DNA from: Octopus vulgaris
Taxonomy: Eukaryota
DNA: 64,000 nucleotides
NCBI GenBank assembly: GCA_951406725.2
Contig: OX597826.1
Location: 45,880,001-45,944,000, forward strand
Direction of reading: 5' to 3'
A program made the translations under genes and the position numbers. Each line of letters starts with the position of its first letter. Position 1 is the first letter of the stretch. Positions 2,986 to 53,620 of this stretch are shown piece by piece. Under the pieces are notes generated by a model. It was given only the letters and a program-made list of their open reading frames with translations, searched no databases and was not told the origin of the DNA.

Positions 2986-3120
2986 AGATTAATCAGCCGA
3001 AATTGCGAAGATGATCCGGTTCTTGACTGAAGATTAAAGGCTTCGAATGTCCCGTTCGTGTTTTTTGTGTCGTCTTCTAAATGTTTCACGTTCTTGTCCC
3101 AGTTTGTATTTTTTTACTTT
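2986..3120 (+). mobile_element. 5'-truncated copy of permuted-HHR family 2
   Basis: agattaatcagccGAAAttgc...tcttgaCTGAAGAttaaaggct matches 37505-37690(-) and 53392-53620 but lacks the UH strand. Confidence 0.75.
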
Positions 3121-30786: not shown

Positions 30787-31208
30787 TTTCTTATTTCTTT
30801 ATTGCTCACAAGGGGCTAAACGTGGAGGGGACAAACAAGGACAGACAAACGGATTAAGTCGATTACATCGACCCCAGTACACAACAGGTATTTAATTTAT
30901 CGACCCCGAAATTATGAAAGGCAAAGTCGACCTCGGCGGAATTTGAACTCAGAACGTAACACCAGACGAAATACCTATTCCTTTACTACCCACAAGGGTC
31001 TAAACACAGAGGAGACAAACAAGGACCGACAAATGGATTAGGTCGATTACATCGACCCCAGTGCGTAACTGGTACTTAATTTATCGATCCCGAAAGAATG
31101 AAAGGTAAAGTCGACCACGGCGGAATTTGAACTCAGAACGTAACAGCAGACGAAATACCGCTAAGCATTTCGCCCGGTGTGCTAACGTTTCTGCCAGCTC
31201 ACCGCCTT
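30787..31208 (-). mobile_element. SINE S2 with an internal tandem duplication, nested in an S1 copy (~30705-31495)
   Basis: Two consecutive S2 cores; S1 halves lie on either side. Confidence 0.85.
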
Positions 31209-37398: not shown

Positions 37399-37588
37399 TA
37401 TATATATAAGAACAAATAATGGCAAACGGATATTTGGCGCTAAAATAAAGAGCTGCAATATTTTCAGCATACCGTCCGATAACGTGTATGTGTGTATGTA
37501 TACATATATGTATATAAAAAAATACAAAATGGGACAAGAACGCAAAACATCCAGAAGACGATACAAAAAACACGGACGGTTCATTCGA

Positions 37589-37654
37589 AGCCTTTAATCT
37601 TCAGTCAAGAACCGGACCATCCTCGCAATTTCGGCTGATTAATCTTGAGATTGC
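37589..37654 (-). ncRNA. Non-circularly permuted hammerhead candidate, family 2
   Basis: Minus strand: gcaa-TC-tcaaga-ttaatc-agcc-GAAA-ttgc-(14 nt)-tcttga-CTGAAGA-ttaaa-ggct. Confidence 0.7.
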
Positions 37655-38429
37655 TCCAATCTGGCTAGCCCCAAGGAAAACCTGACCGCACGCGCGCGCA
37701 TATATGAAACAGGGCAAAGAAGAAAATGGAGTAAGTCTTTTTAATGCTCAGTTGTTTCATTTGAATTCAGTCTAATCAATCTTGCCACATTATGCAATAA
37801 TACATGCTACTATTAACTACTCTCCAAGTGACATTGAAATGGCACGTCCAATCAGATTAATCAGAATTACATGTTTCAAATGACATTATACAATTCTTCT
37901 TCAAATGGGGCCAAGCGTTGATTAGGTGGAGGGTTTCGCAAAGATTTATTATTATAATTAGTACGTTTCCTCATCTTTTGGAATTGTTGTCCTTGCTCCC
38001 TTTGCTAAGGAAAAATGCTCTCCATGTAAGTCTCCGAATAAAAGAGCTATTAGCTGTTCGATTTTCTCCATCTCGTAAGTAAACTTCAGTATGCGAGTTA
38101 GTCAAATATTTGACGGTTTTCAATATAACAATCATTTCACCCTACTAAGCTCATTCACAGATATTGGCTATCAGATGACACATTAATCTGGAGATTGCTT
38201 TATCAAATGAATGTCTGAAAATCTGGTAAAATCCATAAAGCTTTTATAATGACAAGCATGAAATATGGAGTGAGAAAATGTTTTTAATATATCAATTGGC
38301 AGTTGTTTCTAATGACGTTATACAGCTCTTCTTCAGTATATATATATATATATATATATCCCTCTACGAAAAGATCTCAGAATTTTAATTGATTTGCTTT
38401 TCGCAGGAAGGAAAGTTTCTTGTCGAAGA

Positions 38430-38491
38430 TACGTCTCGCTTTTATCCTTTGAAACGTAGAGTAGATGAAACCTTAGCGACTGAAAAAGGGG
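38430..38491 (+). ncRNA. Non-circularly permuted hammerhead candidate, family 1 (core G8A), in an (AT)n-flanked element at 38359-38700
   Basis: tacg-TC-tcgct-tttatccttt-GAAA-cgta-(16 nt)-agcga-CTGAAAA-agggg. Confidence 0.65.
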
Positions 38492-42734: not shown

Positions 42735-43660
42735 TTTTTACAACAGAAAAACAGAGTACAGGACATACTACACAAGGAAAAATCCCCTTCATCAGCTGTC
42801 ACTAGTTCGACTCTAGCGTGTCTCGAAGGCAAGACAGAACACGACTCACCAAAATAGTCCTTCCTGCGAGAGAATTAAAATAAAATTACCTCGCAGAGGG
42901 GTAAAAACGATACAAATAAAACGTAAAAACGATACAAATAAAACTACAAAATAAAATACAAGATAGAAATACATGTACAAGAAAATACAATACGAGAAAT
43001 AAAAATAAACGAGAAAACAAACAAGGAAAACAAACGAAAAGGCCTTTTTCTGGCTTACACGCGGCCTTCAAACTGTAAAGACACACATTTGTGTTCCCAT
43101 GCGCGGCCAGAACCTCCTCCGTCTAAACCAGAAAAAGGCCTTTTCGTTTGTTTTTCTTGTTTGCTGTCTTGTTTATTTTTATTTCTCGTATTGTATTTTT
43201 TTTGTACATGTATTTTTATCTTGTATTTTATTTTGTGATTTTATTTGTATCGTTTTTACGTCCTGTTTGTGCTACATTTTTTTCTTGCTTGTTTTTACCC
43301 CTCTGTAAGGTAATTTTATTTTAATTCTCTCGCAGGAAGGACTAGTTTGGCGAGTCGTGTTCTGTCTGGCCTTCGAAACACGCTAGAGTCGAACTAGTGA
43401 CAGCTGATGAAGGGGATTTTTCCTTGTGTAGTATGTCCTGTACTCTGTTTTTCTGTTGCAAAAATTGTTTTTTCCGTTTTCGTTTCTCGTTGAGTTCTAC
43501 GTCTCTGTTTTTCTGTTGTAAAAAAATGGTTTTTCCGTTTTCGTTTCTCGTTGAGTTCTACGTCTAGTTGTGGTGTCCTGTACTCACGTATATATATTTA
43601 TATATGCATGTATATATACATGTAGATGTAGGTACGTACATATATGTTTGTATGTATGCA
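42735..43660. mobile_element. Fold-back element (arms 42735-43061 / 43120-43465, tail to ~43660) carrying a permuted HHR in both arms
   Basis: ~330-bp inverted arms with a 58-bp spacer. The tail is shared with 38500-38700 and 53500-53600. Confidence 0.88.
43356..43415 (+). ncRNA. Non-circularly permuted hammerhead candidate, family 1, intact core
   Basis: cgtg-TT-ctgtc-tggccttc-GAAA-cacg-(16 nt)-gacag-CTGATGA-agggg. The mirror copy at 42784-42843(-) has GAGA instead of GAAA. Confidence 0.7.
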
Positions 43661-49258: not shown

Positions 49259-50390
49259 CAATTGAGGATAAAATCTTTAAAAGAAATTATCAGTAGTCAG
49301 CGTGAAAAACCTCGTAAGAGAAAAAATCCGTAAATTCTTCCTCTTTGAAAATATTCATTTATATTATATTGAGGGTACTACTATTCGTAGATACCAACAC
49401 GCTAAGAGGGACCAATGCGGTCAAAACTACTAAAAATAAACAAAATTTTACCGAATGCAAAACTTCAAAACACATCATTTTAAAAAGAATTCAGTTACAT
49501 ATCACATGTGATTTCGCATTTAATGCAGAATATGCATTTCATGTTCGTCAGTGCAACAAACTCAAGAAATATAAGAAAAAACATAACATTACAAACTCGA
49601 TAGCCAACCGTAGAATTCGTCGTAGCTTGTACGAATGTTTATCCTTACATATCTATGAAAATGGCGGGCTTTTTCGCAATGCATTTCGGTAACAAATTGC
49701 CTAGTCGGAATAAAAATTCAGTATTGAACTATTCCGGTGAAAAATATAAATTAACAATTGAGGATAAAATCTTTAAAAGAAATTATCAGTAGTCAGCGTG
49801 AAAAACCTCGTAAGAGAAAAAATCCGTAAATTCTTCCTCTTTGAAAATATTCATTTATATTATATTGAGGGTACTACTATTCGTATATACCAACACGCTA
49901 AGAGGGACCAATGCGGTCAAAACTACTAAAAATAGGATTTTTTCTCTTACGAGGTTTTTCACGCTGACTACTGATAATTTCTTTTAAAGATTTTATCCTC
50001 AATTGTTAATTTATATTTTTCACCGGAATAGTTCAATACTGAATTTTTATTCCGACTAGGCAATTTGTTACCGAAATGCATTGCGAAAAAGCCCGCCATT
50101 TTCATAGATATGTAAGGATAAACATTCGTACAAGCTACGACGAATTCTACGGTTGGCTATCGAGTTTGTAATGTTATGTTTTTTCTTATATTTCTTGAGT
50201 TTGTTGCACTGACGAACATGAAATGCATATTCTGCATTAAATGCGAAATCACATGTGATATGTAACTGAATTCTTTTTAAAATGATGTGTTTTGAAGTTT
50301 TGCATTCGGTAAAATTTTGTTTATTTTTAGTAGTTTTGACCGCATTGGTCCCTCTTAGCGTGTTGGTATCTACGAATAGTAGTACCCTCA

Positions 50391-50398
<8 letters not shown>
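49256..50398. mobile_element. Retrozyme-like element: 496-bp unit, partial tandem copy (49752-49934) and inverted copy (49935-50398), in (AT)n
   Basis: taacaattgaggataaaatc recurs at 49256 and 49752. 49935-50398 is the reverse complement of the array; copies look near-identical. Confidence 0.9.
50203..50266 (+). ncRNA. Type I hammerhead motif (mirror copy at 49494-49557 on -)
   Basis: gttgca-CTGACGA-a-cat...atg-c-GAAA-tcacatgtga-TA-tgtaac; palindromic stem III. Confidence 0.8.
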
Positions 50399-50458
<60 letters not shown>

Positions 50459-52999: not shown

Positions 53000-53620
53000 A
53001 TAACATCGTCTTGGCTTAACAGCCCTCATCGTTTGTTTTTACTGTGTTATTCTCTTTGTTCTGTCTTTTGCTGTTTTTATTTTGATTGTTTTTACCGTCT
53101 TGTTTTGTTCTTACTGTCCTGTTCTTGTTACTACTTTTACCCTTCCGCAAAAAATCCCAAATTTTATTTAATTTGCTTTGCGGGAAGGATTGCTTCAACG
53201 AAGTCGCATCTTGTCCTTACATTCGAAAACACGGAGTAGACGAAACAGAGACAACTGAAGAAGGGGAATATTCCTTGTGCTGTATGTCTTATGCTCTGTT
53301 TCTTCGTTGTTTGAAAAATAGTTCGTTCCCATGTTTTTGTTTTTATGTTTTCGTTTCTCATTGTGTTCTACGTTTTTTTTTTTGATGTCCACAATCAGCC
53401 GAAATTGTGAAGATGATCCGGTTCTTGACTGAAGATTGAAGGCTTCGAATGTCTCGTCCGTGTTTTTTGTATCGTCTTCTAAATGTTTCACGTTCTTGTC
53501 CCAGTTTGTATTTGTTTACATTTACATATGTATATATACATATAGATGTAGGTATGTACATATATGTATGCATATATGCATATATCTATATATTATTTGT
53601 ATTATTATATGATCGAACGC
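53000..53620 (+). mobile_element. Chimeric element: permuted-HHR family 1 (motif 53205-53266) joined to family 2 (from 53392)
   Basis: cgca-TC-ttgtc-cttacattc-GAAA-acacg...gacaa-CTGAAGA-agggg, then aatcagccGAAA...tcttgaCTGAAGA. Confidence 0.75.

Follow-up and report, generated by a model that had tools for sequence, protein, structure and literature searches.

Natural hammerhead ribozymes can be dissected into three blocks, S, G and C, and RNAs in which these follow each other in the order S-G-C (type SGC) cleave in vitro at 0.007–0.19 per minute (PMC10085705). Such a non-circular permutation of a natural RNA was first reported in 2023, from anonymous metatranscriptome contigs without host or role. 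According to the sections of that report consulted here, type-SGC RNAs are known from metatranscriptomes only, with no source in the genome of a known organism except one GCS candidate, and type CSG from only two metagenomic sequences (PMC10085705). The known alignments in these sections leave no more than 1–2 nucleotides (nt) between CUGAnGA and the adjacent stems (PMC10085705). Here, we describe a motif with the S-G-C layout on the minus strand, positions 37654–37589, of a 64,000-nt stretch of the Octopus vulgaris genome (GCA_951406725.2, contig OX597826.1, positions 45,880,001 to 45,944,000; hereafter the window), where it is part of a repeat that we call family 2. A first-pass annotation of the window had noticed a ‘reversed topology’ at this place, and type SGC is that topology as a published class. 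Sequence comparisons make it likely that the motif is a non-circularly permuted hammerhead with a looped-out insert of 4–6 nt after A9, carried by a non-autonomous Penelope-like (retrozyme-like) retroelement. In the open-access literature, including the accessible part of PMC13725137, we found no report of permuted hammerheads in animal genomes, octopus or Naiads.

Penelope-like insertions are described as having (TA)n targets, 5′ truncation, partial tandems and inverted copies (PMC8557442, in part), and the octopus families share these features with Naiads. Naiads encode an endonuclease (EN) and a reverse transcriptase (RT), whereas family 2 is non-coding. In the portions of PMC8557442 available to us, Naiads are reported to lack canonical hammerheads, and cases flagged as ‘HHR_core’ and ‘HHR_half_core’, including Naiad_Ovul, are left unexplained. 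Animal non-LTR (long terminal repeat) retrozymes, which in the parts of the two reports seen are proposed to be moved by Penelope-like elements, resemble family 2 in having non-coding, low-GC tandem units with one hammerhead each (PMC7229834; 10.64898/2026.07.22.740005). Their hammerheads are of type I, mostly in circles of 170–400 nt, whereas family 2 has the SGC order in a unit of 740–870 nt (same sources). Canonical Penelope-like elements with a C-terminal EN carry minimal type I hammerheads.

On the minus strand the motif reads GCAA-UC-UCAAGA / AGCC-GAAA-UUGC / UCUUGA-CUGAAGA-UUAAA-GGCU, with the blocks in the 5′–3′ order S, G, C. Block S (37643–37654) consists of a stem III strand (GCAA, 37654–37651), the dinucleotide UC (37650–37649; U16.1 and C17) and a stem I strand (UCAAGA, 37648–37643), and the predicted cut lies within it, 3′ of AUC, between 37649 and 37648. 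A 6-nt linker between the stem I and stem II strands (37637–37642), the sequence of which varies among subfamilies, leads to block G (37625–37636), composed of the stem II strand AGCC (37636–37633), GAAA (37632–37629) and the stem III strand UUGC (37628–37625). Block C (37589–37610) follows after a 14-nt linker that holds variable positions (37611–37624), and comprises UCUUGA (37610–37605), CUGAAGA (37604–37598), a 5-nt insert after A9 (UUAAA, 37597–37593) and GGCU (37592–37589). Both the sequence read-out and the descriptor match agree with the stems and cut site originally assigned. Of the linker lengths given at that time, 14 nt stands, whereas 10 nt is reached only by counting AGCC in and should be 6 nt.

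With an any-order three-block descriptor at strict settings (stems of 6/4/4 bp), the motif is the sole match in the window and none is found in 200 shuffled 64-kb windows. Relaxing stem II adds the motif of another repeat, family 1a, at 43356–43415, at a rate of 1 match per 30 shuffles. In 915 kb of fetched, family-enriched DNA the descriptor gives 132 SGC and 4 CGS matches and no other order. The empty strict shuffles and the excess of SGC over CGS argue against a chance match. A related explanation would be that the active ribozyme is a canonical hammerhead, in circular permutation, whose blocks come from two adjacent units of a tandem; tandem units do exist, and adding the G block of one unit to S and C of the unit before it formally gives the type III order. 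However, this would require a loop of approximately 750 nt although an identical G block is only 6 nt away, and most copies are single. Hence, we regard both variants of this explanation as highly improbable. Rfam at gathering thresholds returns no match in the window, and a nested covariance model is unable to represent three crossing helices.

Across the genome (227 contigs, 2.8 Gb), an exact count with two words yields at least 5,968 copies of family 2, with 0 in the reversed control, and core and stems are complete across the family. For the analysis of covariation we hand-picked 19 copies of the family-2 clade, in 12 of which the search pattern had required the three inner pairs of stem II. 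In this set 92.6% of the cells pair, a level that slid controls (≤45.7%) and 500 shuffles never reach, even though the relatedness of the rows inflates the shuffle test. Two-sided changes occur in 9 of the 15 pairs (three in stem III, four in stem I and two in stem II), and the outer stem II pair is A-U in seven copies, G-C in six and G-U in four. One subfamily replaces GCAA:UUGC in stem III with GUAA:UUAC. The core letters of blocks C and G are invariant save for N7, and the insert after A9 is 4, 5 or 6 nt long among subfamilies, with unrelated sequence. Family 2 is also present in four public runs (contigs with four organism labels, one at very low depth), where variants above 5% affect 5/5 insert, 5/20 linker, 3/28 stem and 0/13 core positions; this table leaves out two differences private to the window copy and is incomplete near the ends of the stretch. 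Grouping core with stem (3/41) against insert with linker (10/25) gives p=0.003 in a Fisher test. Of the three variants in stems, one affects a terminal pair, another is a G-U and the third is compensated in a subfamily. Given that variants crowd the insert and spare the core and stems, the insert appears to be a free bulge, and stem II real but short.

The window also contains family 1, to which family 2 has no similarity by blastn (E<0.01) or nhmmer, so that the description of the latter as a second, sequence-distinct family was justified. The family-1a motif (43356–43415, plus strand) has a 1-nt insert after A9, within the block C limit of type SGC and equal to that of the tested SGC-1 and SGC-2 constructs (PMC10085705 supplement, as far as it was available), and a GUU triplet; its inverted, 5′-truncated partner copy (42784–42843, minus strand) has a mutated GAAA. 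The motif of family 1c (38430–38491, plus strand) is decayed here by a change of G8 but intact in the family, and that of family 1b (53205–53266, plus strand) is decayed in the window copy. These three families were collected without a descriptor, by similarity to the decayed window copies. Their consensus pairs are CGUG:CACG (1a), CGCG:CGCG (1b) and UACG:CGUA (1c) in stem III and CUGUC:GACAG (1a), UUGUCC:GGACAA (1b) and UCGCU:AGCGA (1c) in stem I, with core variation among them at N7 and H17 only. Family 1a has a period of 776 nt, inverted partial copies and linkers of 4 and 16 nt; the earlier statement that the linkers of family 2 are as in family 1 was therefore mistaken. Likewise, a downstream tail said to be common to both families belongs to 1a, 1b and 1c, whereas family-2 copies run straight into TA-rich repeats in 30 loci. 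The false impression of sharing stems from a family-2 fragment (53393–53515, plus strand) that begins approximately 8 nt past the predicted cut and is nested in the TA-rich tail of the family-1b copy. The tail is thus no argument for relatedness of families 1 and 2.

If the motif cleaves, the 5′ ends of genomic copies may carry a trace of it. Using a fixed anchor and a probe word genome-wide, and numbering positions from the predicted cut, we find 5,968 family-2 copies reaching +16 to +22, 4,826 reaching +7 to +13, 3,824 reaching 0 to +6, 3,193 reaching −22 to −16 and 2,895 reaching −39 to −34 (a 6-mer). Hence, copies are lost approximately 4–5 times faster per base 3′ of the cut than 5′ of it. 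The count at −7 to −1 (2,827) misses a variant subfamily and was kept out of the series. Among the first 94 C1 matches of the +7 to +13 count, 40 lack the word immediately 5′ of the cut, and we retrieved every one of them. Sixteen proved to be variants that continue upstream; a further one has an internal deletion that lands at −3, and another ends near −9. The starts of 22 of the 94 lie at 0 to +7, 6 exactly at the cut and 16 at +2 to +7 (one internal deletion and two duplicates included), and no true 5′ end falls at −1 to −6 in the sample. For family 1c we took the first 14 of the 25 C1 copies that were eligible: five are full variants and nine are truncated, eight of these at +3 to +8 and one at 0 or −2, with none at −3 to −9; the family-1c counts (1,329 versus 536) lack a baseline upstream and mix subfamilies, which confounds them. 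Truncation at the cut is also seen in a homogeneous tandem subfamily of family 2 (loci L294 and L317). We take the 5′ ends at and just after the predicted cut as indirect evidence of cleavage in vivo, and the many insertions that start there point to linear cleaved RNA as the template. Together with the compensatory changes within families 1 and 2, the unvaried core and the varying linkers and insert, the pile-up at and after 37649/37648 supports the earlier proposal that structure was kept while sequence diverged, on grounds stronger than those it first had.

Several observations count against the interpretation as an active permuted hammerhead. The insert of 5 nt (4–6 nt in relatives) exceeds the block C limit of no more than 1–2 nt in type SGC, and the 4-bp stem II of the window motif is worth only −4.2 kcal/mol. 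The nested minimum-energy fold of the window copy contains none of the three hammerhead helices and is no more stable than shuffles (z=0.21), with a method that excludes pseudoknots. A 13-bp helix with an upstream strand (−19.7 kcal/mol, locus L030) would sequester stem II. A fourth ‘I’ helix, which is needed in HRIMA-1, is not evident across families: by eye, a 4–7-bp candidate joining the far ends of stems I and II can be drawn in families 2 and 1c and none consistently in 1a and 1b. The search pattern itself fixed the inner three stem II pairs in 12 of the 19 rows used for covariation. A search with blocks G and C only (GCCGAAA...CTGAWGA...GGC, family 2's own stem III excluded) gives 155 matches versus 2 in the reversed control; in 40 hand-picked non-family-2 loci, fetched from the 100 matches listed, there are 43 motif matches, of which just 9 have the unrequested S block upstream (stem I being 6 bp long in 7 of them) and 1 has it downstream, the remainder being decayed, truncated or unrelated. 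Finally, most copy junctions abut (TA)n, which offers microhomology, so that exact ends are uncertain by approximately 1 nt and may be pulled to A/T-rich spots, and copy loss is steep inside the ribozyme too (+22 to +7); RT stalling and TA microhomology hence contribute to the 5′-end pattern.

These points bear on an alternative in which selection maintains a hammerhead-derived structure, but the family-2 form is a poor cleaver on its own, dependent on dimerization, a partner in trans or a protein, or else serves chiefly as a folded signal for RT stopping or recognition; the pile-up of 5′ ends would then be due to RT stalling at the pseudoknot and to TA microhomology. Stem II is indeed weak or irregular in several families, with a 1-nt insert and two G-U pairs in family 1, a U-C mismatch in family 3 (described below) and no evident stem II in Acropora Naiads, and the early copy loss and the strong competing helix also speak for it. 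Short-stem Penelope hammerheads are reportedly able to cleave as dimers. However, stalling does not predict that six ends should lie at the scissile bond while the preceding 6 nt hold none, given that block S continues through these nucleotides and A/T microhomology is on offer there too. The same step is seen in family 1c, the sequence of which is unrelated, and the catalytic-core letters do not vary among subfamilies. That the edge at the scissile bond is sharp in two sequences unrelated to each other is what stalling explains least well, and we consider this alternative unlikely. A dead relic, inherited from an active ancestor and copied passively by family 2 after cleavage was lost as the insert grew, would fit an insert beyond the described range, and identity among copies proves nothing in this respect, given that individual genomic copies decay neutrally. 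Yet the core persists in all of the subfamilies with inserts of 4, 5 and 6 nt, unrelated as these inserts are in sequence, and so does the outer pair of stem II in re-paired form. Family-2 copies are, moreover, themselves truncated at the cut, and we hold a relic to be very improbable.

Type SGC (HRIMA-1 and variants; PMC10085705, in part) and family 2 have in common the S-G-C order, three crossing helices, the core letters CUGAnGA, GAAA and UH, and a short linker between stems I and II; covariation in stems I, II and III of family 2 comes from the hand-picked rows. In contrast to type SGC, family 2 is genomic and eukaryotic, has thousands of copies and shows no sequence relationship apparent by eye, and its insert is 4–6 nt long, its stem II is weaker and a fourth helix is not clear. 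From retrozymes, family 2 has the non-coding tandem units with one hammerhead, in SGC order instead of type I. Because the insert exceeds the SGC limit and the hammerhead is not of type I, we class family 2 as a variant of these systems and not as a member.

For a permuted hammerhead in such an element, we envisage the following mechanism. A read-through or tandem transcript would fold three mutually crossing helices around the hammerhead core and be cut after AUC. A Penelope-type RT/GIY-YIG protein acting in trans would nick (TA)n DNA and prime on the T/A-rich tail (target-primed reverse transcription). Copying as far as the cut end would give 80-nt stubs or copies of one unit and more that start at the cut, L294 being the 5′ member of such a tandem, whereas copying through an uncut ribozyme would give longer and tandem copies. 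The upstream strand that pairs with GGCU and the following bases probably holds many transcripts in an off state, and with this region sequestered cleavage would be partial; in the folding model, the 13-bp helix could thus keep many transcripts uncut.

The family-2 unit is non-coding, of low complexity, approximately 740–870 nt long and Penelope-like, and ends in (TA)n, with the ribozyme motif approximately 75 nt from the fixed 3′ end. In the window the motif is followed on the minus strand by a T-rich tail to this end (37515–37588), which is common to 30 aligned loci, and then by a TA-rich microsatellite (37484–37514), the presumed target or priming site. The 29 nt before the motif (37655–37683) are the leftover 5′ part of a 5′-truncated copy, and the best genome matches begin at query base ~18. 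Aligned to each other, the 30 best loci have a common 3′ end and variable 5′ ends, with ...CCCATTTTGTATTT followed directly by TA-rich repeats. No open reading frame (ORF) of ≥120 amino acids (aa) was found over the window copy. Beyond the (TA)n, longer copies go on with a second unit, at periods of 742 and 866 nt (742, 866, 779 and 776 nt across families, with one hammerhead per unit), and an inverted pair is seen at C1:4067636/4068075. The fixed 3′ end, variable 5′ truncation, partial tandems, inverted copies and microsatellite target are those of a non-autonomous Penelope-like element. An unselected 200-kb sample contains one family-2-like and one family-3 copy and no intact motif of a known family, numbers that are too low to use. 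Elsewhere in the window, a family-2 fragment (BLAST span 2986–3075, plus strand) begins approximately 3 nt past the predicted cut and is preceded by TA repeats. Locus L246 (C13:22522935-22523522) has three family-2 stubs approximately 270 nt apart, each starting just past the predicted cut and with TA repeats before it.

No autonomous copy with a family-2 end was found. Elements with a C-terminal GIY-YIG were considered as SGC-bearing autonomous partners and rejected, given that the descriptor finds no SGC motif in 30 loci or six nine-kb regions. Searching the family loci with Penelope proteins by tblastn gives, among the matches listed, mostly low-complexity or short interspersed nuclear element (SINE) artefacts and one adjacent element (L019). 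The genome contains an intact two-ORF Penelope-like family (L121:1945-5590) with a 346-aa ORF1 and a 765-aa protein that combines RVT_1 with GIY-YIG at the C terminus. A 781-aa open frame of this family is present at approximately 20 further places, and it has apparently been active recently. Like family 2 it ends at (TA)n, but by eye its hammerhead near the 3′ end is type-I-like with U3-A8 and not SGC. It could be the trans-mobilizer of family 2, the two 3′ ends having been compared by eye only.

The 3′ ends of Naiad_Obim and Naiad_Ovul, in the records of PMC8557442 available to us, read AUGG-UA-CUGCCC, UGUC-GAAA-CCAU and GGGCAG-CUGAUGA, 4 nt, GGUA, which is again S-G-C. By eye, this motif matches subfamily 2f of the present genome, which has 1,565 first-look candidates and a descriptor match in 8 of 12 loci. 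Loci L267 and L268 are short truncated 2f copies without an ORF, and approximately 1.1 kb upstream of 2f a short, broken RT-thumb-like remnant can be seen by eye in two of six loci, without a significant match to the C-terminal-EN protein of the intact family. In the Naiad supplement, we inspected by eye the passages around CTGATGA (60 of 62), CTGAAGA (30 of 43), CTGACGA (15 of 23) and CTGAGGA (15 of 25), a procedure that misses words split between lines, and record names were taken from the following header and the file order. Among 54 Naiad records, 10 have SGC layouts by eye: three near-identical ones from Acropora, two from Octopus and five others (parts 9, 12, 12, 16 and 19; PMC8557442). 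A further 6 of the 54 have CSG layouts by eye, with 4–5-bp stem II and 5–11-bp stem III (PMC8557442 File S5, parts 13–16); these six records, nematode by their position in the file, include Naiad-2_Nbra and Naiad-3_Nbra. In the SGC records seen, stem II is weak or cannot be made out, and a fourth helix is clear by eye in one Naiad record. Circular permutation converts SGC into CSG, so that the reverse-cycle class appears to be the one in use among Naiads.

The permuted architecture of family 2 probably derives from Naiad-type elements with the same 3′-end layout. Set against this, no sequence similarity was detected between family 2 and the 2f or Naiad 3′ end, so that the resemblance is in structure only, and cephalopod Naiads are described as long inactive (PMC8557442, in the parts seen). 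The Naiad ORF layout, with an N-terminal GIY-YIG EN and a C-terminal RT, is absent from family 2, which has no ORF. On balance we favour, with some reserve, a broader view in which Naiads and their non-coding satellites, in several animal phyla, rely on hammerheads of non-circular permutation, with SGC in the cnidarian, arthropod and cephalopod records and CSG in the nematode records. In this view the ribozymes work in vivo, determine the 5′ end of the template for transposition and can accommodate a 4–6-nt insert or a stem II that is almost lacking. If true, the Naiad ribozyme was missed solely because searches assumed circular permutations, and this would answer why Naiads, abundant in many invertebrate genomes, seem to be without the hammerhead of other Penelope-like elements. 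An animal genome that carries the motif thousands of times, in dozens of natural variants, would supply the permuted class with a host, a role and a large covariation set and extend the tolerated hammerhead core to a 4–6-nt insert. The pile-up of genomic 5′ ends would also offer a way of reading ribozyme activity from assemblies alone.

The word CTGCTAG lies mid-unit in families 1a and 2 (L049 and L063) and near the 5′ end of Naiad_Obim and Naiad_Ovul in the records seen; it is possibly a promoter word common to families 1a and 2 and Octopus Naiads. A rival helix on G8-A9 in family 2 (GAUUAA:UUAAUC) was rejected: it is worth −2.1 versus −4.2 for stem II, common variants break its pairing, and it has no counterpart in subfamilies 2b–2d. 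A similar helix is possible in family 1 (GAAGG:CCUUC). In families 1b and 1c (L128 and L160), the stem III strands are palindromic (ACGCGU and ACGU) and CGAAG precedes block S. As a possible route to the permutation, block S of these families may have been born by duplicating the GAAA-palindrome-UC segment of a dimer-type hammerhead.

Family 3 (L247–L254, L229, L230 and L241; for example, C1:1415916) has the SGC layout with a U-C mismatch atop stem II. Additional hammerhead-like words flank the motif on either side, and the 3′ end is not a microsatellite. Family 3 resembles a Naiad record (PMC8557442 supplement, file part 12, in the portion seen) and is very abundant, making up a large share of the 100 listed of 5,999 matches. 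More SGC-like families, with unrelated stems I and III and 1–3-nt inserts, are found at L259, L260, L261, L263–L266 and L183. Elsewhere in the window, a 475-nt inverted repeat (99%) at 49351–50409 ends in (TA)n, and its arms each hold a canonical type I hammerhead with a CUGACGA core and a 10-bp stem III (at 50203, plus strand, and 49557, minus strand); it looks like an inverted pair of ordinary Penelope-type ends. At 30792–31159, the window has two tandem 184-nt copies of one common repeat, which we take to be SINE-like.
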